A stretch of DNA of 64,000 nucleotides from Kiritimatiellia bacterium (GTDB lineage Bacteria; Verrucomicrobiota; Kiritimatiellia; JAAZAB01), in contig JAXGPF010000006.1 in NCBI GenBank assembly GCA_040767085.1, positions 32,001-96,000 on the forward strand. The letters are read 5' to 3'. Within the stretch, counting starts at the first letter, position 1. Every line of letters starts with the position of its first letter. A program made the position numbers and the translations under genes. Of the stretch, positions 3,715-64,000 are shown piece by piece. The notes beneath the pieces were generated by a model that ran no database searches, was not told the DNA's origin, and saw only the letters and a list, made by a program, of their open reading frames with translations.

Positions 3715-4782
3715 TCAAGGGGTCCAGAGATACATGATGCGCGGCTGCCGTTGTCCCAAGGCCGCCGGGAGGCGGATGGCCGGCGCCGGATAAGACAGGC
3801 GGGCCAGAAACCGGGCCAGCCCGCGCGGCTGCTCATAGCGCACAACCCGGACCTCCTCGGCGCCCAGCAACTCCCGCGCCTTGGCCAGGGCGTCGCCCCA
3901 ATATCCGACCTGGTCAATCATACCGCCGGCGGCGGCCTGGCGGGCGGAAAAGACCCGGCCGTCGGTCAACTGGTCCAGTGCCGCCGGCGCAACCTGCAAA
4001 CGCTTTTGCACAACGTTGACGAAACGACCATGCATTTCGTCCAGGATATCCTGAAAGATGGCCAGGTGTTCCGGCTGCACCGGCCGGAAAGGGTTCAACA
4101 AATCCTTGTTGTCGCCCGCCGTGATGGTGACGTCGCGAACGCCGATTTTATCGCTCAATTCCTTCCAGTTCAAGGTCTGCATGATCACCCCGATCGAGCC
4201 GACGATGGCGGTCGGCTCGGCGACAATCCAATCCGAAGCCATGGCGATGTAATAACCGCCGGAAGCGGCCAGGTCGCGCACATGCACCACCACCCGGCGG
4301 CCATCATCCGAGGCGCGGAAATCCTGCAAGGCCTGGTAAATTTCGTCCGTAGGCGTCATCACCCCGCCGGGTGAATCCAATTCCAGGAGGATGGCCCGCA
4401 CGGCGCGATCCTGCCGGGCGGCGCGAATTTGCTGCAGCAATTGCTCGACGGGATCCAGTCCGGCGTCCCAGATCCCGCCGTCGGCATCCCGGGAGATGAT
4501 GCCCGTCAGCGCCAGGCGCACCGCTTTCACGTCGCCATCGCCGTAAGACCAGATTTCCTCGAAATCGGGAAATTCATCCGCCGCGCGGCTGGATCCGTCG
4601 GACCGGCCGGCGAACAGCGGGCCCGACGACAGCGCCAGGTTGGCAATCGCGCTGAGAAGCAGCAAAACCGCCAACACCATGGTGACGATCCAGCAACCGG
4701 ACCGCGGCGCCGGGCGCGGGCGTTCGGCTGGCAGCGGTGGCGGCATGGTAGCTGGGGCAGACGTTGGGCTTTCCGTGGACAT
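3715..4782 (-). CDS. sppA: Signal peptide peptidase SppA (S49)
   Basis: N-terminal TM segment, LDSPGG, AASGGYYIA, GSIGV, TDGRVFSARQA; start placed at MSTESP. Confidence 0.92.
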   Translation of the reverse strand: MSTESPTSAPATMPPPLPAERPRPAPRSGCWIVTMVLAVLLLLSAIANLALSSGPLFAGRSDGSSRAADEFPDFEEIWSYGDGDVKAVRLALTGIISRDADGGIWDAGLDPVEQLLQQIRAARQDRAVRAILLELDSPGGVMTPTDEIYQALQDFRASDDGRRVVVHVRDLAASGGYYIAMASDWIVAEPTAIVGSIGVIMQTLNWKELSDKIGVRDVTITAGDNKDLLNPFRPVQPEHLAIFQDILDEMHGRFVNVVQKRLQVAPAALDQLTDGRVFSARQAAAGGMIDQVGYWGDALAKARELLGAEEVRVVRYEQPRGLARFLARLSYPAPAIRLPAALGQRQPRIMYLWTP

Positions 4783-4996
4783 GGCTGACTTATACCCCAT
4801 CGGCCGGGCCGCGCCAAGAACAAAAAACTGGATTTTTTGCTGGCGCGCCGCTATGATGTTCCGCATTCGGCGATTTTCCCACGGCCGCGCCCGGGGCGCC
4901 GTATCGTATGGATTTTGCGCGGCGACAGGCTTCGCCTGAATTTTGACCAAAACCGCCCACCGTGCAAAATCGGACATAATCGAAAGAACGCCGCAA

Positions 4997-6319
4997 ATGC
5001 AAAAGTGTTCCCGCGAGGATCAATTCCACCCCGCCAGCGCGCTCGATTTCCTGTCGATCCCGCAATTGCGCAACCTCCAATTACACCGGCTGCGCGCGAT
5101 CGTGGAGCGGGCATACGCCAACGTGCCGCTGTTCCGGCAGCGCATGCTGGAACGCAAACTGCCGCCCGACGACCTGCGTTCGCTGACGGACATCGCGCAT
5201 TTGCCGTTCACGGTCAAAGCCGATTTGCGGGATAACTATCCCTTCGGGCTGTTTGCCAGCCCGATGGAGGAAATTGTCCGGCTGCACGCCTCCAGCGGCA
5301 CTACGGGCAAGCCGATCGTCGTGGCCTACACGCGCGCGGACCTGGAAGTCTGGAGCAGCGTCATGCTGCGCTCCTTCGCGGCCTGCGGCCTGCATGCCGG
5401 CGACGTGATTCAAAACGCCTACGGCTACGGTCTGTTCACCGGCGGGCTGGGCGCGCATTACGGCGCCGAGGCCCTGGGCGCCACCGTCATTCCCATCTCC
5501 GGCGGCAACACCGACCGCCAGATCATGGTGCTGAAGGACTTCGGCGTCACGGCCATCTGCTGCACACCGAGCTATTTCCTGCACCTGGCGGAACGCGCGG
5601 AGGAACAGGGCGTCAACCTGCGCGACTTGCCGCTCCGGGCGGGCGTCTTCGGGGCCGAGCCCTGGACCGAGGCCATGCGCAACCGCATCGAGGCCATGAC
5701 CGGCATCCGCGCCTACGATATCTACGGCCTCTCGGAAATCATCGGCCCCGGCATAGGCATCGAATGCAAGGAACATAACGGCCTGCACATTTTCGAGGAC
5801 CATTTTTACCCCGAGATTGTGGATCCGGAGAACGGCATGGCGCTGCCCGACGGCCAGGAAGGCGAACTGGTGTTGACCACCCTGAGCAAGCAGGCCATGC
5901 CCATGATCCGCTACCGCACGCGCGACATCACCACCCTCGTCACCGAATCCTGCCCCTGCGGCCGCACCATTCGCCGCATCCGCCGCATCTCGCGCCGCAG
6001 CGACGACATGTTCATCATCCGCGGCGTCAACGTTTTCCCATCGCAGGTGGAGACCGCGCTGCTGACGCTGGAGGGCACCCTGCCGCATTACCAGATCGTC
6101 CTGACGCGGGAAAAAGGGCTGGACCGGATGGAGGTCCAGGTGGAGGTCACGCCGGAAATTTTCAGCGACCGCATCGGCGCGATGGAGAACCTGCGCCGCA
6201 AGCTGGTCAAGGCGCTGGAGCAGGTCTTGAACATCCGGGTGGAAGTGCGCCTGGCGGAACCGCACACCATCCCCCGCAGCGAGGGCAAGGCCCGGCGCGT
6301 GCTGGACCGCCGCGAATAA
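4997..6319 (+). CDS. paaK: Phenylacetate-CoA ligase (PaaK/PaaF family), copy 1
   Basis: HASSGTTGKP, YGYGLFTGGLG, YGLSEIIGPG, RYRTRD, RSDDMFIIRGVNVFPSQ. Confidence 0.92.
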   Translation: MQKCSREDQFHPASALDFLSIPQLRNLQLHRLRAIVERAYANVPLFRQRMLERKLPPDDLRSLTDIAHLPFTVKADLRDNYPFGLFASPMEEIVRLHASSGTTGKPIVVAYTRADLEVWSSVMLRSFAACGLHAGDVIQNAYGYGLFTGGLGAHYGAEALGATVIPISGGNTDRQIMVLKDFGVTAICCTPSYFLHLAERAEEQGVNLRDLPLRAGVFGAEPWTEAMRNRIEAMTGIRAYDIYGLSEIIGPGIGIECKEHNGLHIFEDHFYPEIVDPENGMALPDGQEGELVLTTLSKQAMPMIRYRTRDITTLVTESCPCGRTIRRIRRISRRSDDMFIIRGVNVFPSQVETALLTLEGTLPHYQIVLTREKGLDRMEVQVEVTPEIFSDRIGAMENLRRKLVKALEQVLNIRVEVRLAEPHTIPRSEGKARRVLDRRE

Positions 6320-6848: not shown

Positions 6849-8189
6849 ATGCCTGCCGCCAAGGATCAGCCGTTTGAAAATCGTCTGTGGTCCATGGACG
6901 AAGCCATGCCCCGCACCCGGCTGCGGGAGCTGCAGTTGCACCGCCTGCGCGAGTGCGTCGCGCGCGCCGCCCAGGTGCCGTTTTACCGCGCTGCCCTGGC
7001 CGCCGCGGGGGTAAGCCCCGGCGACATCCGTTCGCTGGATGATGCGCGCCGCCTGCCCTTCACCACCAAGGAAGACCTGCGCCGCACTTATCCCTTCGGC
7101 CTCCTGGCCGTGCCGCGTTCCAAACTGGCGCGCCTGCACGGTTCGTCCGGCACAACCGGCAAGCCCACCATCGTCGCCTATACCGCCGAGGATCTCGACA
7201 ACTGGTCCAATCTCTGCGCCCGGTTCCTGGTAGCCGGCGGGTTGCGCCCGGAACACCTGGTGCATATTGCCTTCGGCTACGGCTTGTTTACCGGCGGCTT
7301 CGGCCTGCACTACGGCGTGGAAAAAGTCGGCGCCGCCGTGCTGCCCGTCTCGGCCGGCAACACGCAGCGCCAGGTGATGCTGCTGGCGGACTTGCAGGCG
7401 GACGTCCTGATCTGCACGCCCAGTTACGCCTTGAACATCGCCGAAGTCGCCGTCCAGGAAGGGCTGGACCCCCGGGCGCTGCGCCTGAGCTTCGGCCATT
7501 TCGGCGGCGAACCCTGGACGGAAGACATGCGTTGCCGGATCGAACTGGAACTCGGCTTGCTGGCTTTCAACAATTACGGCTTGAGCGAGGTCCTGGGCCC
7601 GGGCGTCAGCGGGGAATGTTACCGGCGCGACGGCATGCACATCCAGGAAGACCATTTCCTGGTGGAATGCCTGGATCCCGAGACCCTGGAGCCGGCGCCC
7701 CGCGGCGCGCCGGGCGAACTGGTCATCACCTCGCTGACCAAGCAGGCCATGCCATTGCTGCGCTACCGCACGCGCGACATCACCATCCTGAACGACGAAC
7801 CCTGCGCCTGCGGCCGCACCGGCGCGCGCATGGGCCGGATCATCGGCCGGTCGGACGACATGCTGATCATCCGGGGCGTCAACGTTTTTCCCTCGCAGAT
7901 CGAAGAAGCCCTGCTGCGGGTGGACGGCACCGCGCCGCATTACCTGATCGAAGTGGACCGGCCGGGCAACCTGGACGAAATCACCGTGCGGGTGGAAATG
8001 CGGCCGGAGAAGTTCACCGACAGTTTCGCGGCCCTGGAAAAGCTGCGCCGGGACATTGTCCATGAAATTTACGCCATCACCAGCATTCACGCCAACGTGG
8101 AACTGGTCAAGCCGCAAACCCTGGAACGTTCGCCCGGCAAGGCCCGCCGGGTGCACGACCGGCGCCGGGAGCCCGGGCGCAGCGGTTAA
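6849..8189 (+). CDS. paaK: Phenylacetate-CoA ligase (PaaK/PaaF family), copy 2
   Basis: HGSSGTTGKP, FGYGLFTGGFG, YGLSEVLGPG, GRSDDMLIIRGVNVFPSQ. Confidence 0.92.
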   Translation: MPAAKDQPFENRLWSMDEAMPRTRLRELQLHRLRECVARAAQVPFYRAALAAAGVSPGDIRSLDDARRLPFTTKEDLRRTYPFGLLAVPRSKLARLHGSSGTTGKPTIVAYTAEDLDNWSNLCARFLVAGGLRPEHLVHIAFGYGLFTGGFGLHYGVEKVGAAVLPVSAGNTQRQVMLLADLQADVLICTPSYALNIAEVAVQEGLDPRALRLSFGHFGGEPWTEDMRCRIELELGLLAFNNYGLSEVLGPGVSGECYRRDGMHIQEDHFLVECLDPETLEPAPRGAPGELVITSLTKQAMPLLRYRTRDITILNDEPCACGRTGARMGRIIGRSDDMLIIRGVNVFPSQIEEALLRVDGTAPHYLIEVDRPGNLDEITVRVEMRPEKFTDSFAALEKLRRDIVHEIYAITSIHANVELVKPQTLERSPGKARRVHDRRREPGRSG

Positions 8190-8264
8190 ATCCGCCGGCG
8201 TCCGGAACGCCGCGGAGCAGCGGGAATCTGAAACACGGGAAACGTACGCCGGGAGCAACCAGCC

Positions 8265-10013
8265 ATGCCGCTCAAACCCACTCAAAACTCCGACGCCTAT
8301 GATTTGCAGCGCAAATCCTCGGCCATCACCCTCTCGGACATGGAAGTGTTCGTCTTCCCCGAGCTGATTTACAGCCTGCTGCTGGCCAATCTCATGTCGC
8401 CCCGCATCTGGCGCTGGCGCGATGACCCGTGGTTTAAAGGCCTGGCGCGCCTGAAACCCGGACGCCGCCTGCAGCGCCTGAAGCAGTTCATCATGGATCA
8501 TTACATCTTCAACCTCGATTTGAACACGTGGGGGCTGACCACCAAGGCCCGCGAAATGGCGCGGTTCAGCGATTTCCTGGATCCCGACGCCCTGCGCCAG
8601 TCCAACGCCCTCTTCGGTTACGAGGGTGACAAGTATTATTTCGACATTGACATCCGCTCCCACTTCGGGCTGGACCAGTATGACGGCGATGTCATCCCCT
8701 ACTGGAAGACGGAAACGGTGGAAGCCATGGACGCCTTCCGCCACCGGCCCGGTTACCAATCCGGCGCCGGCGAGTGCGTTTCCCTGGCCGTGCTGTACGC
8801 CGCCGCCATGTTTATCGTCTGCCGCGTGCCGCTGGAGAATATTTTTCTGATGGCCACCCCGCTGCATTCCCAGAACTTCGTGGACCTGGACGACGGCATC
8901 CTGACCAACAACCGCCGCCTGGTGACCAAGACCATGTGGTGCAACGGCACCGCGCTTTCCGCCCAGGCCCGCCGCGCCCTGGAACACGAGCGGGTGACGG
9001 TCGTGGCCCACGCCACCGGCTATATCCACACCCTGTTCTCCGCCGCCACGATCGACCCCGCCGCTTACACGCGTTTTTCCAACCGCCTGCGCGATTTCCT
9101 GCGCACGGAGCTGAATGTGGAAATCCTCGGCAATTTCCTGCGGCACAGCCGGGAATTCCAGCCTTGCTTCCAGTTGCGCTGGCCGTTGCACGGCCGGGAC
9201 CATTACATCTCCCTCGACCGGGCCTTCGCGTACGAACAGGATTCTCCGGCGCGCTTGACCGACGCCACCCGCAGCCGCCTGCTGGCGGAGGTGGACCTGG
9301 AGGAATTCCAGCCCCAGCCGCTGCCCAACCGTATCGTGCTCAACGATCTAGAGGATTTCGTGCGTTCCCGCCGCTTCGACTTCACCCGCCCGGCCGACCT
9401 GGAAGATTTGCGGCAACGCTTTGCGTCGGATTGCCTGAAAGCCGCCGTCGCCATTGAAAACCTCGTCAAATTCTGCCATGTCACCCCGCGCCTGCCCGAC
9501 CTGGCCGCCAAGCAGTGCGCGCCGACCCTGCCGCCGCTCGCACTGCATCCGGACATGCACCGCGAAGAATTGCTGGCGCGCCTGCAGTCGCTCCGCGCCA
9601 GCCATCCCGCCGTGGACCTGGCCTTCCATGCCTACCGCGATTTGAACGCGGCGGATGACCGCCCGTTTCTGCTGGCGGCGCTGGAACGCAATCCGGTGGT
9701 CCTGGCCGCCACGCAAGACATGACGGACGCGGCGCTGGCCGCGCAGATTGCCGCCCTGCCGGATGAATCAATTTACGACGAACCAGGCCGGCTGGCGCAG
9801 CCGGATGAAGTCTGGAATTTCAGCCGGGGCGACGGGGCGGAAAAGGCCATCCTGCTGGCCAACTGCCTGCGCGCCCGTCATCCCGGCGCGCCGCTGACGC
9901 TGCGGCTGGAGGGCAGCGCCGTCCGGTTGGACTGCGGCGGACAAACCTGGGAGTTTGCCACGTCCAAGCAACTGACACCACGGCAATGGGATCTGGGCAA
10001 TCCCGCGGGGTAA
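8265..10013 (+). CDS. Hypothetical protein with transglutaminase-like Cys motif
   Basis: 582-aa ORF with coding-like composition; GECVSLAVLYAAA...PLHSQNF, and a second degenerate GDGAEKAILLA near the C-terminus. Confidence 0.7.
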   Translation: MPLKPTQNSDAYDLQRKSSAITLSDMEVFVFPELIYSLLLANLMSPRIWRWRDDPWFKGLARLKPGRRLQRLKQFIMDHYIFNLDLNTWGLTTKAREMARFSDFLDPDALRQSNALFGYEGDKYYFDIDIRSHFGLDQYDGDVIPYWKTETVEAMDAFRHRPGYQSGAGECVSLAVLYAAAMFIVCRVPLENIFLMATPLHSQNFVDLDDGILTNNRRLVTKTMWCNGTALSAQARRALEHERVTVVAHATGYIHTLFSAATIDPAAYTRFSNRLRDFLRTELNVEILGNFLRHSREFQPCFQLRWPLHGRDHYISLDRAFAYEQDSPARLTDATRSRLLAEVDLEEFQPQPLPNRIVLNDLEDFVRSRRFDFTRPADLEDLRQRFASDCLKAAVAIENLVKFCHVTPRLPDLAAKQCAPTLPPLALHPDMHREELLARLQSLRASHPAVDLAFHAYRDLNAADDRPFLLAALERNPVVLAATQDMTDAALAAQIAALPDESIYDEPGRLAQPDEVWNFSRGDGAEKAILLANCLRARHPGAPLTLRLEGSAVRLDCGGQTWEFATSKQLTPRQWDLGNPAG

Positions 10014-56430: not shown

Positions 56431-57645
56431 GTGAAAAGAACCTTGACCTGGCATGGATTGATCTTGATGCTGCTCCTCGCCGCCACCGCGCCGGCGCAGG
56501 TCCGGGTCACTAAAACCATGACCGCCGCCTCGCTGCTGGACATCTCCGGCCTGAAATATTCCGGCGGCGGCGCCGCGGAATTGTTTTACCGGACGCTGGA
56601 AGCCGACCTGGCGCGCTCCGGCTGGTTTGAAATCATCTCCGCCGGGCGCGCGGAATTCACCGTCACCGGCACGGTGGAGCCGGCGGGCGACAACCTGGTG
56701 GCGCGCTGCGAAGCCTACAACGTCATCTCCCGCGAACGCTACCTCGGCAAGGCCTACCGTATGCCCGCGCGCGACGCGCGCCGCATGGCGCACCAGGTGG
56801 CCGACGACATCATCCAGGCGCTCACCGGCCAGCCCGGCATGTCCGCCACCCGCATCGTCATGGTCGGCAACCGCACCGGCCGCAAGGAGCTTTACATCTG
56901 CGACTCCGACGGCGCCAACCTGCGCCAGCTGACGCGCGATCAAAGCCTGAGCCTGTCGCCCAAGTGGAGCCCGGACGCCAGGCAAATCGTTTACACCTCC
57001 TTCCTGTCATACTTCCCCGACGTGTACCTGGTGACCCTGGAAACCGGCGCGCGCCGGCGCGTGTCCAATTACCCCGGCCTGAACTCTTCCGCGGCCATTG
57101 CGCCCGGCGGCGATGAACTCGCCCTGACCCTTTCCAAGGACGGCAACCCGGACTTGTTCATCAAGGATTTGCGCTCCGCCCGCCTGACGCGCCTGACGCG
57201 CACCAGCCGGGCGGCGGAGGCCAGTCCGGCCTGGTCGCCCGACGGCCGGCGCATCGTTTACGTCTCCGACGCGTCCGGCGCGCCGCAGCTTTACCTGATT
57301 GACCGCAACGGCGGCGACCCGCGGCGCATTACCAGCAGCGGCGCCGAAAACGTCGACCCCGACTGGGGCCGCAACGGTTTCATCGCCTACTCCAGCCGCA
57401 TCGGCCGCGGCTACCAAATCTGCGTGCTCAATCCGGAAACACTGGCTTTCCGCCAGATCAGCGACGGCAACGGCGACTACGAAGATCCCTCCTGGGCGCC
57501 CGACGGCCGACACATCGTCTGCACCCGCACCCGCAACCGTATCTCGCGCCTTTTCGTGCTTGACAGTATGAGCGCTTCTTGTATAAGTTTGCTCCCGGAT
57601 TCTGAAGCCGGGGAGTGGTTTGCGCCGGCCTGGTCGCCCAAGTGA
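56431..57645 (+). CDS. tolB: Tol-Pal beta-propeller protein TolB
   Basis: Signal peptide, AHQVADDIIQALTG, PD40 repeats (SPKWSPD, SPAWSPDG, PSWAPDG); directly upstream of pal. Confidence 0.92.
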   Translation: MKRTLTWHGLILMLLLAATAPAQVRVTKTMTAASLLDISGLKYSGGGAAELFYRTLEADLARSGWFEIISAGRAEFTVTGTVEPAGDNLVARCEAYNVISRERYLGKAYRMPARDARRMAHQVADDIIQALTGQPGMSATRIVMVGNRTGRKELYICDSDGANLRQLTRDQSLSLSPKWSPDARQIVYTSFLSYFPDVYLVTLETGARRRVSNYPGLNSSAAIAPGGDELALTLSKDGNPDLFIKDLRSARLTRLTRTSRAAEASPAWSPDGRRIVYVSDASGAPQLYLIDRNGGDPRRITSSGAENVDPDWGRNGFIAYSSRIGRGYQICVLNPETLAFRQISDGNGDYEDPSWAPDGRHIVCTRTRNRISRLFVLDSMSASCISLLPDSEAGEWFAPAWSPK

Positions 57646-57709
57646 GGCGCGTTGGGCAGCGCGGCAGTTATTTTTCGGAATGGCGGCAACTTTGTTGGAG
57701 GAAGCATTT

Positions 57710-58249
57710 GTGAAGAATCGCTTGTTTACACTGACGGTGCTATTGATGGCGGGAATGCTGTGTTTGAACATGGGCTGCCGGCGCAAAAAAGGCGGCTTGG
57801 CCGGCGGCGACGCCGGTGGCGCCGATAGTATCGCCGGCGTGAGCGGCGCGGGGGATTTGTCCGCCGAAGGCTGGGAAGCCGGCCGGCCGGAGAACATGCA
57901 ACTGATATCCGGACTGAAGTTCGAAAACGTGCAGTTTGAATACGACAGCACCCAGATCAGCGGTAGCGAGCGCGGTAAAATCGAGGCCGTGGCGGAGTAC
58001 CTGCGCGCCAACCCCAAGGTTGGCGTCATCGCGGAAGGCCACTGCGACGAACGCGGCAGCCTGGAATACAACATGGCCCTGGGCGAAAGGCGCGCCCTGG
58101 CCGTGCGGGCTTACCTGATCGGCCTCGGCATTGACGGCGCCATCATCCAGACCAAGAGCTACGGCGAAGAAAAACCGCTGGCGCCCGGCAACGACGAAGC
58201 TTCCTGGGCGCAGAACCGCCGCGTGGAATTCGTGTTCTATAATTATTGA
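57710..58249 (+). CDS. pal: Peptidoglycan-associated lipoprotein Pal
   Basis: GTG start after GGAGGA; lipobox-like NMGC; EGHCDERGSLEYNMALGERRA, SYGEEKP, NRRVEF. Confidence 0.95.
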   Translation: MKNRLFTLTVLLMAGMLCLNMGCRRKKGGLAGGDAGGADSIAGVSGAGDLSAEGWEAGRPENMQLISGLKFENVQFEYDSTQISGSERGKIEAVAEYLRANPKVGVIAEGHCDERGSLEYNMALGERRALAVRAYLIGLGIDGAIIQTKSYGEEKPLAPGNDEASWAQNRRVEFVFYNY

Positions 58250-58255
58250 TGTTTT

Positions 58256-58300
58256 AAAAAGGGAGAAGCTGGCGGATGCGCCGGCTTCTCCCTTTTTTTT
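58256..58300 (+). terminator. Intrinsic terminator after pal (likely bidirectional)
   Basis: A5-GGGAGAAGCTGGCG-loop-CGCCGGCTTCTCCC-T8. Confidence 0.9.
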
Positions 58301-58428
58301 GCCCGGACAGCGCCCAAATTGTTTTCGGCAGGACGGTGCGCAACACCCTGCTTCGTCAGACTGCCCAGGGCACGCAGTGGCGCCGCTGCAACATACATGA
58401 CTGTGCTGGCAAAGAATGCAAAGCCGCC

Positions 58429-58743
58429 ATGATCTCCTGTGTCAATGCCGCGCCGGCCGCTTTCCCGCCCCTCGCCTTCTTCGGCGGCGCCGGCGCGGGC
58501 GAAATCCTGCTGGTCCTGCTGGTGCTCCTGCTGCTCTTCGGCGCGCGGCGCCTGCCGGAACTGGCGCGTTCCCTGGGACGGGCCATCGGCGAACTCCGGC
58601 GCGCCTCCCAGGATTTGACCCGCGAAGTCATGCTTGATGCGCCCCCGCCGGCCCGCCCGCCGCCGGCGCCTGAAGATCAAACCGCGCCCGACGACGAGCT
58701 CCCGCCGCCCCAACCGCCCGCGCCGGCGGCATACCAGGGCTGA
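58429..58743 (+). CDS. tatA: Twin-arginine translocase TatA/TatB subunit
   Basis: GEILLVLLVLLLLFGARRLPELARSLGRAIGELRRA. Confidence 0.88.
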   Translation: MISCVNAAPAAFPPLAFFGGAGAGEILLVLLVLLLLFGARRLPELARSLGRAIGELRRASQDLTREVMLDAPPPARPPPAPEDQTAPDDELPPPQPPAPAAYQG

Positions 58744-58793: not shown

Positions 58794-58805
58794 TTTGTAT
58801 ACAGT
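58794..58805. promoter_or_regulatory. Candidate GntR/FadR-type operator
   Basis: TTTGTATACAGT with a perfect TGTATACA core, 10 bp before the GntR start, in an AT-rich promoter region. Confidence 0.6.
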
Positions 58806-58814
58806 ATTCAATCA

Positions 58815-59462
58815 ATGAGCGCCATTGACCAGTCGCTGCTGACCGCGCGGGTGTACGAGCACCTCCGGGAACGCATTGTCAACAAGACCTTCCCCGCCGG
58901 CGCGCGGCTGGCGGAGGAAACCATCTCCGCCGAGTTGGAAGTCAGCCGCACCCCCGTGCGCGAAGCCCTGCACCGCCTGACGCAGGAAGGCTTTGTTGTT
59001 TACGCGCCCCGGCGCGGCTGCCGCGTCAAACCGCTCAGCTGCCGGGAAGTCGAGGATATTTTCGAATTGCGCTCCATCCTGGAGCCGCTGGCTTTGCGGG
59101 AAGCCTGGCCCCGCATCACGCCAGCGGATATCGCGCGCCTGGAAACCCGGCTGGCGGAACTGGACCGCATATCCGCCGGCGGCCAGTCCCAGGCGGCCCT
59201 GGCCGCCGACGACGATCTCCACGACCTGTTTTGCCAGCGCTGTTCCAACCGCTACCTGCGCGAATATCTGCGCCACCTGATCCAGTTGAGCCGCCCTTAC
59301 CGCAGTTTCGGCGCCGGCGCCCGCGCGCACCTGCGTCAATTGCACCGGCAGCGCAAGCAAATCCTGGCGGCGCTGCGCGCCGGCCGGAAGGAACTGGCCG
59401 GACAATTGCTGCAACGTCACATCCGCGCGGGACAACAGGAAATTTTATCGCGTTTGGCATGA
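58815..59462 (+). CDS. GntR-family (FCD) transcriptional regulator
   Basis: VYEHLRERIV...LEVSRTPVREAL...LTQEG wHTH plus FCD domain. Confidence 0.93.
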   Translation: MSAIDQSLLTARVYEHLRERIVNKTFPAGARLAEETISAELEVSRTPVREALHRLTQEGFVVYAPRRGCRVKPLSCREVEDIFELRSILEPLALREAWPRITPADIARLETRLAELDRISAGGQSQAALAADDDLHDLFCQRCSNRYLREYLRHLIQLSRPYRSFGAGARAHLRQLHRQRKQILAALRAGRKELAGQLLQRHIRAGQQEILSRLA

Positions 59463-59472
59463 GGCAAAAAAC

Positions 59473-60150
59473 ATGCAGACCAACCGGCATGACTTGGTGG
59501 ATTTGAACGCCCAGGGCCTGGCCATGGCCCTGCACAGCCTGGCGCCGGTCAGCGGCGGCGCCGCGGCCCTGGCGTACATGCGCCGCCTGATCCAGGGCGG
59601 CACGGACCGCCCGTTGCCGGGCATTGTGCGGCGCGGCGAGCCGGAGCTGCCGCCGGATGCCGTCGCCGTGGGGTTCAGCAGTCCCGTGGCGACGCAGGGC
59701 GCGCGCCGGCGGGCGGCCGCCGTGGTCCGCCCGGCCGGGATCGCCCGGCAAACCACGCCCTACACCGTGTTCCAATTGCCGTTCGCGGGCCGTTCGCCCG
59801 CCCTGCGCGCGGCGCTGGCCATCCGGCGGATTTTCGCCGGCCAGTCCAGCATCGGCATCTGGGGGTCAGCCGCCTTGGAAATTTACACCGGCCTGCCTTT
59901 TACGCATGCCGCCTCCGACATAGACCTGGTGCTGCGGGGCGTCCGCGCCGGCGAAATCCGCGCGACCGTGGCAGAGATTGACCGCGCGGCCGGCGCCGCG
60001 GGAGTGCGGGCGGATGTCGAAATTACGCTCCGCTCCGGCATGGGCATCAATGCCCGGGAATACCTGTCGGAGGCGCCGATGCTGCTGGCGAAAAGCCTGC
60101 GCGCCGTGGGATTAATGCCCCGGGCGGCGGCGCTGCGGGCGCTGGCGTGA
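59473..60150 (+). CDS. mdcG: Malonate decarboxylase holo-ACP synthase (phosphoribosyl-dephospho-CoA transferase)
   Basis: RHDLV, GIVRR, WGSAALEIYTG, SDIDL, RADVEI; operon context. Confidence 0.85.
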   Translation: MQTNRHDLVDLNAQGLAMALHSLAPVSGGAAALAYMRRLIQGGTDRPLPGIVRRGEPELPPDAVAVGFSSPVATQGARRRAAAVVRPAGIARQTTPYTVFQLPFAGRSPALRAALAIRRIFAGQSSIGIWGSAALEIYTGLPFTHAASDIDLVLRGVRAGEIRATVAEIDRAAGAAGVRADVEITLRSGMGINAREYLSEAPMLLAKSLRAVGLMPRAAALRALA

Positions 60151-60195
60151 TGCCGGCGCGGGCGGGCAACCAAAATAAAAATTAATGGTTTAACC

Positions 60196-61101
60196 ATGTC
60201 CAAAATAAATCCAATATCTGCAACATTGCCAGCGGACGGGCCCGGCTGGATTGCGGAAATCGCCGTCCGGGCCATGCTGCTGGAAGCCGCCGCCACTCCC
60301 AAGCCGGGATTGGTGGACCTGGAAAACAGCGGCGCGCATGCGGACATGAATTATTTCACGTTCCTGCGCGGCACGGCCGCCCTGGCGCCCTGGATGCAGC
60401 GGCTGGCGCAGCGGGGCTGGGATCATGCCGGCAGCCTGCCAGCGCTGTTCGCCGCGCTGCGCCCGCTCGGCCGGGCCGCGGAAAAGGCCATGCTGCGCGC
60501 CACGGGCAATGTCAACACGCAGCGCGGCCTGGTGTTTTCCGTGGGGCTGGCCTGCGGCATCGCCGGCCGCCTGGCGCGCACGGAGGGCTGCATCACGGCC
60601 GCGCGGCTTTGCCGGCAGATGGCGGCGTCCGCCCGCGGCCTGTGCGCGCGGGAATTGCAGGGGCTGCCCGCTGCGGCGCCGGGCCGGCGTTTAACGCCGG
60701 GCGAACGGGCCTTCCGCCGGCATGGCGCGGCCGGGGTGCGCGGCGAGATCGAAAAAGGACTGCCCCTGGTGCGCCGGCAAGGCCTGCCGGCGCTGCGCCT
60801 GGCGCTGCGCCGGGGCTGCACGATCAACGACGCCGCGCTGCACGCGCTGGTCGGCATCCTGGAGAAGATTGTTGACACCACCATCCTGCACCGGCACAAT
60901 CCGCGCGTCATGCGACAGGCGCAAAGCGCGGCGCGCGCCATCCTCGCGGCGGGCAGCGTTTTTACGGAAGCCGGGCGCCGGCTTTTAAGGAACACCGGCG
61001 CGGAGTTCACTGCGCAAAACATCAGTCCGGGCGGCGCGGCCGATCTGCTGGCGCTGACCCTGGCCTGTCACTACTGGGAAAGCGAGGTCAAGCTGCAATG
61101 A
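60196..61101 (+). CDS. mdcB: Triphosphoribosyl-dephospho-CoA synthase (MdcB/CitG family)
   Basis: PKPGLVD..NSGAHADM, ATGNVNTQRG, GVRGE, DTTILHR, NISPGGAADLL. Confidence 0.93.
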   Translation: MSKINPISATLPADGPGWIAEIAVRAMLLEAAATPKPGLVDLENSGAHADMNYFTFLRGTAALAPWMQRLAQRGWDHAGSLPALFAALRPLGRAAEKAMLRATGNVNTQRGLVFSVGLACGIAGRLARTEGCITAARLCRQMAASARGLCARELQGLPAAAPGRRLTPGERAFRRHGAAGVRGEIEKGLPLVRRQGLPALRLALRRGCTINDAALHALVGILEKIVDTTILHRHNPRVMRQAQSAARAILAAGSVFTEAGRRLLRNTGAEFTAQNISPGGAADLLALTLACHYWESEVKLQ

Positions 61102-61217
61102 CGACATTATTAACCGGTATTTCCGTCACCATCCTGGGCATGACGGTGACCTTCGTCGGCCTGGCGGGATTATGGGGCGCCATTACAATCATCGGGATAA
61201 TCGTCAACCGCCGGTAG
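61098..61217 (+). CDS. 39-aa single-TM protein resembling an OadG/gamma-type decarboxylase subunit
   Basis: Not in the ORF track. ATGA overlap with mdcB; MTTLLTGISVTILGMTVTFVGLAGLWGAITIIGIIVNRR. Confidence 0.75.
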   Translation: MTTLLTGISVTILGMTVTFVGLAGLWGAITIIGIIVNRR

Positions 61218-61244
61218 AGTTGCTTTCAATTGCGGAGCTTATTT

Positions 61245-62384
61245 ATGCATGGATTACTGGAAAGTTTTGCGCGGTTCGGCGCCGGCACGGGATTTGCCGC
61301 TTTCACCTGGGGGCATGGCGTCATGCTGGCCATTGCCGGCTTGTTGCTGTACCTGGCCATCGTCAAAAAATTCGAGCCGCTGCTCCTGCTGCCGATCGGA
61401 TTCGGCATGCTGCTGGCCAACCTGCCCATCGGCGGCCTGATGGACGCGCCGCGCGACGGCGCCCTGGGCGGCCTGCTGTGGTACCTTTACCAGGGAGTGA
61501 AACTGGGGATTTATCCGCCGCTGATTTTCCTCGGTATCGGCGCCATGACGGATTTCGGCCCGCTGCTGGCCAATCCGAAAACGCTGCTGCTGGGCGCGGC
61601 GGCGCAATTCGGCATTTTCGGAACGTTTTTAGGCGCGCTGGCCATGGGGTTCACCCCCAGCGAATCGTCTTCCATCGGCATCATCGGCGGCGCCGACGGC
61701 CCGACCGCGATCTTCCTCACCGCCCGCCTGGCGCCGCACCTGCTGGGCGCGGTGGCGATCGCCGCGTACTCGTACATGGCGCTCGTGCCGATTATCCAGC
61801 CGCCGATCATGAAACTGCTGACCACGGCCCGGGAACGCGCCGCGCCCATGGCGCAGTTGCGCGAGGTTTCCCAGCGTGAAAAAATCATTTTCCCCGTGGC
61901 CGCCACCATCCTGGTGTGCCTGCTCGTGCCGGCGGCCGCGCCGCTGGTAGGCATGCTGATGCTGGGCAATCTGCTCCGCGAGTGCGGCGTAACCGAGCGG
62001 CTGAACCAGACGGCCCAGCATGAACTGATCAATATCGTCACCATTTTCCTGGGCCTCACCGTCGGCGCCACCACCGGCGCGGAATATTTTCTGCGCTGGC
62101 AGACAATCGGCATCATCGTGCTCGGCCTGCTGGCCTTCGCCATGGGCACGGCCGGCGGCGTCCTGCTGGGCAAGGCAATGTATTACCTGACTGGCGGCAA
62201 GGTTAACCCCCTGATCGGCGCCGCCGGCGTTTCCGCCGTGCCGATGGCCGCGCGGGTGGTGCAGAAGGTGGGCCAGCAGGCCAATCGGCAGAATTACCTG
62301 CTGATGCATGCCATGGGGCCGAATGTCGCCGGCGTAATCGGGTCGGCCCTGGCCGCGGGAATGTTGCTGTCGTTGTTCGGATGA
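61245..62384 (+). CDS. madB: Na+-translocating carboxybiotin decarboxylase beta subunit (OadB/MadB family)
   Basis: [65 protein letters not shown]. Confidence 0.93.
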
Positions 62385-62394
62385 AAGGAAAAAC

Positions 62395-62874
62395 ATGACG
62401 CTTAATAAAGATGTGCTCATCGAATTGATGCAAAAAGTCCGCGAGAGCGGCATCCGGGAATTGATCGTCACTCACGACCGCGTGGAAATCCGGACGGGGG
62501 AACCAATCGCGGCCGGGCGCGTTTTGCCGGCAACCTCCGCCCCCGCTCCAGTCCCAGCCGCCGCGGCAGGGCCGCTCGCGGCCGATGCCCCGGCGGCGCC
62601 CGCGGCTGATGCCGCGCCGGGCAAGACCGCGGAGGCCGTGGCGGCGCCCATTCCCGGCATGGTTTTCGTGGCGCCGGGCCAGGACCTCAACCAGCGGCCG
62701 CTGCCCGGCCCCGGGGCCGCCGTGCGGGAAGGCGATGTGGTCGCCCTGGTCGAGGCCATGAAAATGTTCAACGAGATATACGCCCCGGCTGCGGGCGTGA
62801 TTGACCGGATTGCCGCCGGTAACAAGACCATGGTGAAAGTCGGCGATCCCATCCTCTTCATCCGGCCGGACTAG
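62395..62874 (+). CDS. Biotin carboxyl carrier protein
   Basis: Ala/Pro linker, APIPGMV, EAMKM biotinylation motif. Confidence 0.93.
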   Translation: MTLNKDVLIELMQKVRESGIRELIVTHDRVEIRTGEPIAAGRVLPATSAPAPVPAAAAGPLAADAPAAPAADAAPGKTAEAVAAPIPGMVFVAPGQDLNQRPLPGPGAAVREGDVVALVEAMKMFNEIYAPAAGVIDRIAAGNKTMVKVGDPILFIRPD

Positions 62875-62908
62875 CCTGCCGCGCCGGCACCGGGAGGGCC
62901 GGCATGCC

Positions 62909-64000
62909 ATGACGATCAACCAGAGTTTTCTTGAAAGCATTTTCGGCGCGCCAGCCGGCACTCCGGCGGCGACGGCCGCCCGGCCGGCCGCCCCGCGGGA
63001 GGCATCTGCGCCGGCAACCGGCTGGAACAAGCTGCGCCAGAACTACTGCGCGCGGCTGGCGCGGGCCGCCCCCATTGCCGGCGGCGCCAAACTGGTGGAT
63101 TCCGCGCGGATCACGGAACTGCTGCAGGCGGTGATCGAGCCGGGCGACCTGGTGGCGCTGGAAGGCAACAACCAGAAACAGGCCGACTTCCTGGCCCGCG
63201 CGCTGGTCCGGCTGAATCCCGAACGGATACACGACCTGCACATGGTGCAATCCGTGCTGGCCTTGCCGGAACACCTGGACCTCTTCGAAAAAGGTATCGC
63301 GCGCAAGGTGGATTTCTGTTATTCCGGACCGCAAGCCGCCCGCCTGACGGAACTGTTGGAAAACCGCCGGATCGAAATCTGCGCCATCCACACCTACCTG
63401 GAGCAATACGCCCGGTACTTCGTGGATTTGACGCCGCGCGTGGCGCTGGTGGCCGCCGATTATGCCGATCCCCAGGGAAACCTCTATACCGGCTACAACA
63501 CCGAGGATACGCCCGTGCTGTGCGAAGCCGCCCACTTCAAGGCCGGGCTGGTGATCGCCCAGGTCAACGCCATCCGCGACGATCTGCCGCGCGTGGATGT
63601 GCCGGGCGGCTGGGTGGATTTCGTCGTGACGGCGGACCGTCCCTACTATATCGAACCGCTCTTCACCCGCGATCCGCAAGCCATTACCGACACCCAAATC
63701 CTCATCGCCATGCTCTGCCTGAAGGGGATTTACGCCCGTTACGGCGTGCAAACCCTCAACCATGGCGTCGGCTTCAACACGGCGGCCATCGAATTGCTGC
63801 TGCCGACCTACGGCGCGGAACTGGGTTTGCAGGGCAAAACCTGCTCGCATTTCATGCTCAACCCCCATCCCACGCTCATCCCCGCCATCGAATCCGGCTG
63901 GGTGCGGAGCGTTTATTCGCCCGGCGGGGAACTGGGCATGGAAAACTACGTGCGCGCCCGGCCGGACGTTTTCTTCGTCGGCCCCGACGGCTACATGCGC
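62909..64000 (+). CDS. mdcA: Malonate decarboxylase alpha subunit (acetyl-S-ACP:malonate ACP transferase), truncated by the window end
   Basis: Not in the ORF track. Manual translation from ATG 62909 gives ...PGDLVALEGNNQKQADFL...IHTYLEQYARYFVDLTP...NTEDTP...PLFTRDP...LNHGVGFNTAAIELLLPT. Confidence 0.93.
   Translation, partial: MTINQSFLESIFGAPAGTPAATAARPAAPREASAPATGWNKLRQNYCARLARAAPIAGGAKLVDSARITELLQAVIEPGDLVALEGNNQKQADFLARALVRLNPERIHDLHMVQSVLALPEHLDLFEKGIARKVDFCYSGPQAARLTELLENRRIEICAIHTYLEQYARYFVDLTPRVALVAADYADPQGNLYTGYNTEDTPVLCEAAHFKAGLVIAQVNAIRDDLPRVDVPGGWVDFVVTADRPYYIEPLFTRDPQAITDTQILIAMLCLKGIYARYGVQTLNHGVGFNTAAIELLLPTYGAELGLQGKTCSHFMLNPHPTLIPAIESGWVRSVYSPGGELGMENYVRARPDVFFVGPDGYMR

Follow-up and report, generated by a model that had tools for sequence, protein, structure and literature searches.

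A predicted biotin-dependent malonate decarboxylase with a non-orthologous membrane module in a Kiritimatiellia bacterium

The malonate decarboxylase of Malonomonas rubra (Mad; EC 7.2.4.4) is the one studied enzyme of its kind. Its ACP-based cycle, soluble parts, biotin carrier and membrane beta subunit have counterparts in the operon described here, although the pump subunit and the carrier differ in type between the two. The Pseudomonas and Klebsiella enzymes (MdcACDE; PDB 5VIP, 5VIT and 5VJ1) have MdcA, MdcC, MdcB, MdcG and the fold family of MdcD/E in common with this operon, whereas here no MdcH was found and the operon also contains genes for a membrane beta subunit and a biotin carrier. 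The beta subunit belongs with those of the OadGAB, MmdABCDE and GcdABCD Na+ pumps (beta structure 6IVA/6IWW): it keeps their Na+-site residues, and a gamma-like helix that matches PF04277 is encoded next to it. In those pumps the carboxyl donor is a CoA ester or oxaloacetate, whereas here it is predicted to be malonyl-S-ACP. The gamma subunit here is reduced to a membrane helix, and the carrier gene follows the beta gene rather than preceding it, as it does in those relatives where a carrier was detected.

Gene content and conservation of the operon

An earlier note on this DNA had proposed seven tightly spaced genes, from gntR to mdcA, in the window (the whole stretch of 64,000 nucleotides that was analysed). 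Open reading frames and profile matches placed all seven as predicted on the + strand, with intergenic gaps of -4 to 45 nt. The bacterium belongs to an uncultured lineage and its source setting is anaerobic sludge, and its description as a probable PVC bacterium fits, the GTDB class being shared with the MAG Verrucomicrobia bacterium UBA6053. The order in the window is gntR, mdcG, mdcB, a 39-aa OadG-like helix, the beta subunit, the biotin carrier and mdcA, and the features are as follows.

58796..58803, no strand: candidate operator, palindrome TGTATACA, 12 nt upstream of the gntR ATG
58815..59462, + strand: gntR, GntR/FCD-family transcription regulator (PF00392, 69.2 bits; PF07729, 86.4 bits)
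59473..60150, + strand: mdcG/madK, holo-ACP synthase (phosphoribosyl-dephospho-CoA transferase) (TIGR03135, 112.9 bits against a cut-off of 99.7; PF10620, PF20866)
60196..61101, + strand: mdcB/madG, triphosphoribosyl-dephospho-CoA synthase (PF01874, 254.8 bits)
61098..61217, + strand: mini gamma subunit, OadG-like single membrane helix of 39 aa (PF04277 OAD_gamma, 27.9 bits against a cut-off of 27)
61230..62384, + strand: beta subunit, predicted membrane carboxybiotin decarboxylase/ion pump of the generic NaT-DC type (PF03977, 538.9 bits; TIGR01109, 504.6 bits)
62395..62874, + strand: biotin carboxyl carrier protein, AccB-like (PF00364, 51.4 bits; EAMKM motif)
62909..64000, + strand, cut by the window end: mdcA/madA, acetyl-S-ACP:malonate ACP transferase (TIGR01110, full gene, 880.5 bits)
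64696-65022, window-equivalent, past the window: mdcC
65205-66188, window-equivalent, past the window: mdcD
66215-67141, window-equivalent, past the window: mdcE

The earlier note had expected the ACP, carboxyltransferase, ACP-activation and transporter genes beyond the window, and had named the lack of ACP or carboxyltransferase genes downstream as a refuting case. The ACP gene mdcC and the carboxyltransferase genes mdcD and mdcE were found on the same contig, directly past the window end, and a convergent M42 peptidase gene after mdcE marks the end of the operon. The rest of the expectation did not hold, as a MadH-like ligase gene lies on another contig and MadL/MadM were not found.

Of 24 genomes sampled from the family of this bacterium, six had the same layout, as did one metagenome contig (L117). 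Nine operon genes, with gntR left out, gave dN/dS values of 0.10-0.52 between genomes G000 and G003. Because the gene order recurs in six other genomes of the family and the dN/dS values fall in this range, the operon is not a chance arrangement. The gamma-beta-carrier module is under purifying selection and keeps the same place in the six relatives and in L117.

Soluble parts and the carboxyltransferase

The full mdcA gene (L002 4910-6670) runs to window-equivalent position 64669; its product exceeds the TIGR01110 cut-off of 789.15 bits and is 61-62% identical to MadA. MdcC scored 91.1 bits against TIGR03130 (cut-off 84.1) and is about 37-42% identical to MadE, and in the alignment its Ser34 lies opposite the prosthetic-group serine of the Pseudomonas protein, Ser25 (5VIT chain C). 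Compared with the MadB-type clusters, MdcG is 30-36% identical to MadK and MdcB 34-37% identical to MadG. In the case of MdcB, the TIGR03132 score of 254.2 bits is slightly under the cut-off of 282.35, which was counted against a Mad assignment. The MadB-type comparison set consisted of TIGR03136-positive clusters from a Desulfuromonadales-like order (L111-L116) and from metagenomes.

Downstream mdcH or madH had also been suggested as a check. No true MdcH was found: the best TIGR03131 match, on contig C7, reaches 219.8 bits where 297.9 are required, and is presumably FabD-like. A tblastn search of the genome did reveal a MadH homologue at C24:346064-347146, 49% identical over 363 aa, with a weak AMP-binding match like that of the L111 MadH. 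MadH is the ACP-SH:acetate ligase of the Malonomonas system. Unlike in Mad, the gene here is unlinked to the operon, and it adjoins an ISL3 transposase, which was likewise counted against the assignment; in genome G001, madH directly follows mdcE. A further difference from Mad is that the 95%-complete genome yielded neither MadL nor MadM, whether as PF03817/PF03818 matches or by tblastn with L111 queries, and that MadN and the HutP-like MadY gave no tblastn match in the genome. The lack of a malonate transporter among these results also weighed against the assignment. Of 80 metagenome loci, 42 had MadY.

The carboxyltransferase subunits are of the Mad type by sequence. MdcD is 54-57% identical to MadC, and MdcE 53-58% identical to MadD, of clusters with a TIGR03136-positive MadB, compared with 40-45% and 34-39%, respectively, for the second, MdcE-short gene sets in those same genomes. 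MdcE carries DTPGNAPGKLEE (DTPGNAPG), aligned with DTPGAYPG in the AccA of E. coli (2F9Y), whereas Pseudomonas MdcE has DVPSQAYG at the aligned stretch, that is, PSQAYG in place of the AccA-like PGNAPG. In PMC5534430, Gln100 and Tyr102 of Pseudomonas MdcE are described as contacting the malonyl group. Mapped by count along the alignment, with a chain numbering offset of 16 relative to that text, these two residues fall in DVPSQAYG, and their positions are taken by Asn and Pro within DTPGNAPG in MdcE here. All six family MdcE sequences have the DTPGxxPG motif, as do those of L117 and L178/L188 and 82 of the 83 other Mad-type MdcE/MadD sequences; none of the five second-set MdcE has it. MdcE matched the Pseudomonas-type structure 5VIP with 95 bits, and the NCBIfam label of MdcD/E, above cut-off, is 'biotin-independent malonate decarboxylase subunit beta/gamma'. 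MdcC, MdcD, MdcE and MdcG are all above their malonate equivalog cut-offs. With its biotin-side motif kept, MdcD/MdcE is predicted to be a Mad-type carboxyltransferase that passes the carboxyl group to biotin.

Membrane module and biotin carrier

The likely start of the beta subunit is the ATG at 61245. The protein far exceeds the TIGR01109 cut-off (190.6 bits) but fails the MadB equivalog TIGR03136, with 182 bits against 596.9. It is 31-34% identical to MadB, and a MadB orthologue was ruled out as its identity on these values. Identity is 55-74% to the betas of operons in Bacillota, Thermodesulfobacteriota and Bacteroidota, and the 80 closest relatives are all in non-malonate operons, none of them (0/80) adjoining mdcA. 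A phylogeny of the beta subunit had been proposed earlier; in the resulting tree the family and L117 form one clade (97*) and the MadB clade is far removed, separated from this beta by a branch longer than 4 changes per column. The family and L117 are also one clade in the MdcD+MdcE tree (99*), where the family branch is long and separate (length 0.71); the agreement of the two trees speaks for co-inheritance.

The match to Salmonella OadB (6IVA) reached 420 bits, and 10 of the 11 checked OadB residues are kept: Glu40, Asp203, Tyr229, Arg304, Asn373, Gly377, Ser382, Arg389, Asn412 and Ser419, with Asp203, Ser382 and Asn412 belonging to the Na+ site. The remaining one, Asn311, is essential in Salmonella OAD and is replaced by His here, which was counted against the Mad assignment; the residue there varies among 76 generic betas, with N in 61, T in 9, G in 3, K in 2 and H in 1. 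These data indicate that the beta subunit is an ordinary Oad/Mmd/Gcd-type beta, predicted to supply the pump function. No studied precedent for the pairing of a generic beta with a Mad-type carboxyltransferase was found, which, like the low score on the MadB equivalog, was counted against the assignment.

The OadG-like helix, which is a further difference from Mad, barely exceeds its profile cut-off and matches PF04277 at positions 2-34 of 76 only. The protein ends at residue 39, and an OadG-type C-terminal tail is therefore absent. In OAD the gamma tail tethers the soluble alpha subunit, and its absence was counted against the Mad reading. A mini-gamma homologue of 39-47 aa is directly 5' of the beta gene in all six family loci covering the region and in L117.

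The carrier, of 159 aa, has an N-terminal domain, an Ala/Pro linker and a biotinyl domain with EAMKM. It gave a full-length match to TIGR00531 (AccB), at 76.1 bits under the cut-off of 115.2, a shortfall also counted against the assignment. The N-terminal domain and EAMKM, with the carrier lysine, are kept in all eight aligned homologues. In contrast, MadF of the Mad system has 71 aa. No tblastn match to the carrier at E <= 1e-3 was obtained in six MadB-type loci with a 71-aa MadF, and a MadF orthologue was rejected as its identity because of this result and the difference in type and length. Carrier clusters of this kind number only about ten among 5.8 billion proteins. The earlier proposal of a biotin-dependent, Na+-pumping malonate decarboxylase is supported, with soluble parts of the Mad type (53-58% identity for MdcD/E), but the beta is not MadB and the carrier is not MadF.

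That the beta and the carrier might serve another decarboxylase had been named as a second refuting case. The 95%-complete genome contains a single OAD_beta and no OadA (the best match reaches 33.5 bits where 756.5 are required). Only four Carboxyl_trans matches were found: two are MdcD and MdcE, and the other two form a pair on contig C22, which we read as putative AccD/AccA from their length and pairing; no Mmd/Gcd/Pcc-type or other large carboxyltransferase was found. Since the genome has a single beta and lacks both OadA and any further large carboxyltransferase, the beta and carrier cannot serve another decarboxylase.

Predicted cycle and competing explanations

The operon very probably encodes a complete malonate decarboxylase of the Mad kind (EC 7.2.4.4) that depends on biotin and is linked to the membrane, but whose membrane module is not orthologous to the one in Mad. 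In the predicted cycle, MdcB and MdcG would attach 2'-(5''-phosphoribosyl)-3'-dephospho-CoA to Ser34 of the ACP MdcC, the MadH-like ligase encoded on the other contig would acetylate the ACP thiol, and MdcA would swap acetate for malonate to give malonyl-S-ACP. MdcD/MdcE, of the MadC/MadD type, would then move the free carboxyl group to the biotin of the AccB-like carrier, and the beta subunit, held by the 39-aa helix, would decarboxylate carboxybiotin and export Na+. The resulting gradient could feed ATP synthase or Na+-coupled transport, and the bacterium may in this way conserve energy from malonate decarboxylation. The basis in hand is gene content, protein families, motifs and residues, operon conservation and the absence of an alternative partner enzyme; the substrate, the ion, the direction, the role of MadH and the regulation are what we infer from these sequences. 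The system appears to be a rare variant of the known Mad system, with a generic beta and an AccB-like carrier.

The NCBIfam label of MdcD/E, and the fact that none of the closest beta relatives adjoins mdcA, would suit a soluble biotin-independent Mdc like that of Klebsiella/Pseudomonas, with an inserted gamma-beta-carrier module that is unrelated to it and either inert or serving another decarboxylase. This is extremely improbable, however, as the genome has no other carboxyltransferase to feed the carrier and only one beta subunit, MdcE keeps the AccA-type DTPGxxPG without the Gln/Tyr of biotin-independent MdcE, no true MdcH was found, and the module is conserved in place under purifying selection. 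The same machine might also have a different substrate from malonate, for example a substituted malonate or some other short dicarboxylate. The scores of MdcA against a malonate-specific equivalog and of MdcC, MdcD, MdcE and MdcG against theirs, along with the identity of MdcA to MadA, make this very unlikely, even with the long separate branch of the family in the MdcD+MdcE tree and no known malonate transporter found in the genome.

Malonate is an inhibitor of succinate dehydrogenase, and the system could mainly dispose of malonate rather than conserve energy, or its pump could move H+ rather than Na+. The sequence gives no certain ion specificity, the Asn311 equivalent is His, and only six of the 24 family genomes have the operon, which suits an accessory trait. 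We nevertheless regard this explanation as unlikely, since the three Na+ ligands (Asp203, Ser382 and Asn412) are kept and the c subunit of the F-type ATP synthase has a Q...ES..Y pattern, which we take to be a Na+-binding signature.

It is possible, though doubtful, that the type found in the family and L117 is not a late patchwork but a separate, old malonate decarboxylase lineage with acetyl-CoA carboxylase descent, a descent suggested by the AccB-like carrier with its N-terminal domain and the carboxyltransferase with its AccA-like DTPGxxPG. The N-terminal domain of the carrier, not a gamma tail, would then tether the soluble complex to the minimal gamma-beta pump. If true, an ACP-bound substrate would here be coupled to a Na+ pump by a new kind of architecture, and a PVC lineage of anaerobic digesters would have energy conservation driven by decarboxylation among its traits.

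In the Mad-kind reading, control of the operon would fall to the GntR/FCD regulator, another difference from Mad. Its gene is the first of the operon and keeps the head position in genomes G002, G003, G006 and G021. The palindrome TGTATACA, which may be the operator of this regulator, occurs five times in the 4.08-Mb genome, and its core, apparently doubled, also precedes gntR in G006.

Gene content of the malonate operon

The earlier note had described an operon of seven tightly spaced genes, and this gene order proved right; the seven occupy the + strand between 58815 and the end of the window, which corresponds to C25:32001-96000 of the genome under study (G000). The acyl carrier protein (ACP) and carboxyltransferase genes that it had predicted beyond the window are present in the same contig as mdcC, mdcD and mdcE.

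Genes of the operon in order, with profile scores
gntR, from 58815, + strand: GntR/FCD regulator
mdcG, + strand: TIGR03135, 112.9 bits (cut-off 99.7)
mdcB/citG, + strand: PF01874, 254.8 bits
mini gamma, + strand: 39-aa membrane ORF; PF04277 (OAD_gamma), 27.9 bits, a narrow pass against a cut-off of 27, over profile positions 2-34 of 76
beta subunit, + strand: PF03977, 538.9 bits; TIGR01109, 504.6 bits
biotin carrier, + strand: 159 aa, with an EAMKM motif
mdcA, + strand: first 364 codons in the window and the rest beyond; TIGR01110, 880.5 bits (cut-off 789.15)
mdcC (ACP), beyond the window in the same contig: TIGR03130, 91.1 (cut-off 84.1)
mdcD, beyond the window in the same contig: NF005530, 359.2 (cut-off 228)
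mdcE, beyond the window in the same contig: TIGR03134, 246 (cut-off 237.15)

The operon ends at a convergent M42 peptidase gene after mdcE, and dN/dS for nine of its genes lay between 0.10 and 0.52 when the genome under study was compared with a relative of the same genus (G003). A scan for promoters and terminators at the operon ends gave nothing useful. As a reading of the genes the system is solidly supported, and it is rare. Upstream of the operon, at 56431-58743 of the window, open reading frames were seen by eye whose translations resemble tolB, pal (OmpA-type) and tatA.

Inverted repeats of at least 10 nt were not found in the region upstream of gntR by an inverted-repeat scan. The candidate operator TGTATACA occurs at five sites in the whole genome, one of them at C25:239542; at three further sites, those whose neighbourhoods were examined, no transporter gene lies 3' of the operator, and the regulon search therefore leads to no malonate transporter that could be proposed. 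Parts of mdcG, mdcB, the carrier gene, mdcA, mdcD and mdcE have mismatch-free counterparts among contigs of three RNA libraries, all from a single study other than those of the sludge metagenomes below. These matches were rejected as proof of operon transcription because flanking genes match as well and DNA carry-over is possible, and the 21-nt joints seen in the RNA contigs are artefacts.

Assignment of the beta subunit and carrier to the malonate enzyme

A beta subunit and a biotin carrier could in principle serve another decarboxylase. The genome, which is 95% complete, contains a single OAD_beta protein and lacks OadA (best match 33.5 bits vs a cut-off of 756.5). Only four Carboxyl_trans matches are found in it: two are MdcD and MdcE, and the other two, paired on contig C22, we read as AccD/AccA from length and pairing. 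A carboxyltransferase of the Mmd, Gcd, Pcc or Oad kind able to use the pump was not found in this 95%-complete genome. The alternative was rejected since the genome offers no other carboxyltransferase of these kinds, which leaves the malonate enzyme as the partner of the beta subunit and carrier.

The carboxyltransferase itself was compared with enzymes of both kinds. In the alignment, the segment DTPGNAPGKLEE of MdcE stands opposite DTPGAYPG in E. coli AccA and DVPSQAYG in the biotin-independent MdcE of Pseudomonas. According to PMC5534430, Gln100 and Tyr102 of the Pseudomonas protein contact the malonyl group in the crystal structure; we placed both in the DVPSQAYG stretch by counting along the printed alignment, with a chain numbering offset of 16 from that paper. 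The DTPGxxPG motif is present in all six MdcE proteins of the family, in the three metagenome loci L117, L178 and L188 that carry a generic (Oad/Mmd/Gcd-type) beta, and in 82 of 83 other Mad-type proteins. It is found in 0/5 of the short MdcE proteins encoded by second gene sets beside mad clusters, which have DTQGQRLS instead. The motif thus tracks system type, and by this measure the MdcE of the operon looks biotin-dependent. Ser34 of MdcC aligns with the prosthetic-group Ser25.

In the scheme we propose, the five steps from attachment of the prosthetic group to the ACP up to Na+ export would be those of the established Mad cycle as set out in PMC8085960 and PMC5534430. The generic beta subunit and mini gamma would stand in for MadB. 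The genome also encodes an F-type ATP synthase c subunit (G000:C2:210733-210921) with the stretches ...AIGQARAV... and ...FIESLSIYVLV.... Its GQ...ESLSIY pattern presumably fits the Q/E-S/Y signature of Na+ binding. A second, V-type-like proteolipid is encoded on contig C8.

Several expected parts were not located or lie elsewhere. MadL and MadM were not found in the genome, and the MdcH model matches only one protein, below cut-off, which we take to be FabD-like. Scanning of genes flanking the operons of relatives and of L117 revealed no transporter. Contig C24 encodes a homologue of MadH (49% identity across 363 aa), which stands alone there beside an ISL3 transposase gene and a TadE-like gene; the ligase region spans G000:C24:342697-343965 and 345983-347155 (4697-5965 and 7984-9156 of locus L197), with an MscS fragment also nearby. 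Since madH directly follows mdcE in G001, a genome of the same genus, in the order mdcE-madH-Tad-like gene, the setting on C24 suggests that an IS-linked rearrangement parted madH from the operon in the genome under study.

Comparison with Malonomonas-type Mad systems and origin of the beta subunit

Decarboxylation-driven Na+ pumping is among the smallest known ways of making a living, and to our knowledge malonate-driven pumping has been studied in one organism only, Malonomonas rubra. Six MadB-type clusters (L111-L116) stood in for that system; they come from the 6 of 201 genomes of a Desulfuromonadales-like order with a protein above the cut-off of the MadB model TIGR03136, and the gene order of the cluster is madG-madB-madA-madE-madC-madD-madH-madK-madF-madL-madM-madN. 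Among the soluble proteins of the operon, MdcA is 61-62% identical to MadA, MdcD 54-57% to MadC and MdcE 53-58% to MadD, whereas the beta subunit is only 31-34% identical to MadB; on TIGR03136, whose cut-off is 596.9, it reaches just 182 bits. No similarity could be detected between the carrier and the 71-aa MadF. From end to end the carrier resembles AccB (TIGR00531, 76.1 bits, below cut-off), its N-terminal domain is strongly conserved, and its type is rare: only about ten 90%-identity clusters reach at least 102 bits among 5.8 billion proteins, after which scores are at ordinary AccB level.

In L112-L116 (e.g., L113 11304-14914) a second mdcA-mdcC-mdcD-mdcE set directly adjoins the mad cluster, so that two types of malonate decarboxylase stand in tandem; the MdcE of this set is short, about 232 aa, and its DTQGQRLS motif is of the biotin-independent kind. 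In L111, the best MadB-type cluster, a 56-aa single-helix ORF lies just 5' of madB (ending 30 nt before 3514) and may be the counterpart of mini gamma. We know of no named mad gene to which this ORF corresponds.

Residues with a function in Salmonella OadB, taken from PMC7274780, were compared with the beta subunit. Glu40, Asp203, Tyr229, Arg304, Asn373, Gly377, Ser382, Arg389, Asn412 and Ser419 are kept; Asn311, a position where generic betas vary, is replaced by His. In a set of 185,579 species genomes, the 80 closest betas share 55-74% identity with the beta subunit and belong to several phyla, among them Bacillota, Thermodesulfobacteriota and Bacteroidota. Not one of these genes has mdcA as a neighbour; many adjoin a carrier gene or a weakly mdcD-like gene (25-29%), and from these neighbours we read the operons as Mmd/Gcd-like. 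A tree of 96 rows places more than 4 changes per column on the branch between the MadB clade and all generic betas, and in it the family betas form one clade with that of L117 (97*), nested beside betas of Bacillota MAGs by a weak join (SH-aLRT 80). In a Bacteroidales MAG, a very divergent MadB-like beta (L084 12185-13402; end branch 1.41) lies about 1 kb after the generic beta.

When metagenomes were scanned with an alignment of MadD-type proteins, 80 loci came up. MadB is encoded in 36 of them and a generic beta in three, another 36 loci do not extend far enough for a decision, and the other five have at least 3 kb 5' of madA without any beta. L117 shares the layout of the operon, with a beta 75% identical, an AccB-like carrier 42% identical, mini gamma, and madH at the end. 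Mini gamma precedes beta in L117 and in all six family loci that cover the region. In L178 and L188, the generic beta follows a carrier of MmdC-like type, and mini gamma is absent. In the MdcD+MdcE tree, the family and L117 share one long branch (99*) in the unresolved base of the Mad-type clade, and L178/L188 are nested elsewhere; the free beta tree also sets the two groups apart behind starred branches. Because carrier type, gene order, presence of mini gamma and place in the MdcD+MdcE tree all differ, two independent recruitments of generic betas into malonate systems are suggested. They are suggested, not shown, because a clade uniting the two groups is not rejected when the beta alignment is put to an AU test (p = 0.12, lnL difference 38.2), the tested group having been named after the tree was seen.

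Distribution, setting and meaning

MdcA was found in 8 of 40 relatives. An operon of this layout, in which mdcA comes after beta and carrier, is present in 6 of 24 genomes of the family, three of the same genus (G001, G002, G003) and three of other genera (G006, G015, G021); that of G021 has no mdcG or mdcB between gntR and beta. The relative G013 has another mdc type, and G029 a lone mdcA-like gene. The operon flanks are unlike in each relative examined (murD region; DNA methylase/GIY-YIG; nitrilase-like), which argues that the operon has moved within the family. Across a phylum sample, 19 of 401 genomes contain MdcA: three have the beta/carrier arrangement (the genome under study, G001 and G002), six have a different mdcA-mdcC-mdcD set, whose MdcD shares 36-38% identity with that of the operon, and ten have a solitary mdcA-like gene. 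The solitary genes (L206-L214 and L091; G029 and nine other genomes of the class) are 53-59% identical, have no mdcC, mdcD or mdcE within 1.5 kb, and in several cases lie inside open frames of 800-1100 aa; the class may thus employ the MdcA fold for another purpose or in fused form.

The guess in the earlier note of a PVC bacterium fits at class level, the GTDB class being that of the MAG 'Verrucomicrobia bacterium UBA6053'. Sludge metagenomes from two studies contain DNA nearly identical to that of the genome: in runs X1-X4, the only ones with at least half of the sampled words, the share is 0.71-0.97. X1 and X2 may be the genome's own source, and the smaller shares in digester, landfill and biofilm runs are not taken as evidence of habitat.

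Searches of open-access PMC and bioRxiv turned up no account of a Mad system whose beta is not MadB, nor of malonate decarboxylation in this lineage. That soluble Mad machinery can couple to a membrane module of another subfamily speaks for regarding the Na+-decarboxylase family as plug-and-play, and the operon is a natural test of what the beta subunit must recognise in its carrier. An uncultured sludge lineage of Verrucomicrobiota/Kiritimatiellia type is predicted, from its genes, to use malonate as a source of energy, or at the least of a Na+ gradient, and such malonate use could steer its enrichment and isolation. DTPGxxPG vs xxQxxx in MdcE/MadD offers a simple marker of biotin-dependent and biotin-independent systems, both of which current family models name alike.

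The complete MadB-type cluster is very common in metagenome contigs labelled as human gut (L121-L167 and others), where it comprises madB, a HutP-like madY, madA-E-C-D-H-K, one to three madF, madL, madM and madG. Among the 80 gene sets from metagenome and genome loci in the MdcD+MdcE alignment, 35 were more than 95% alike.
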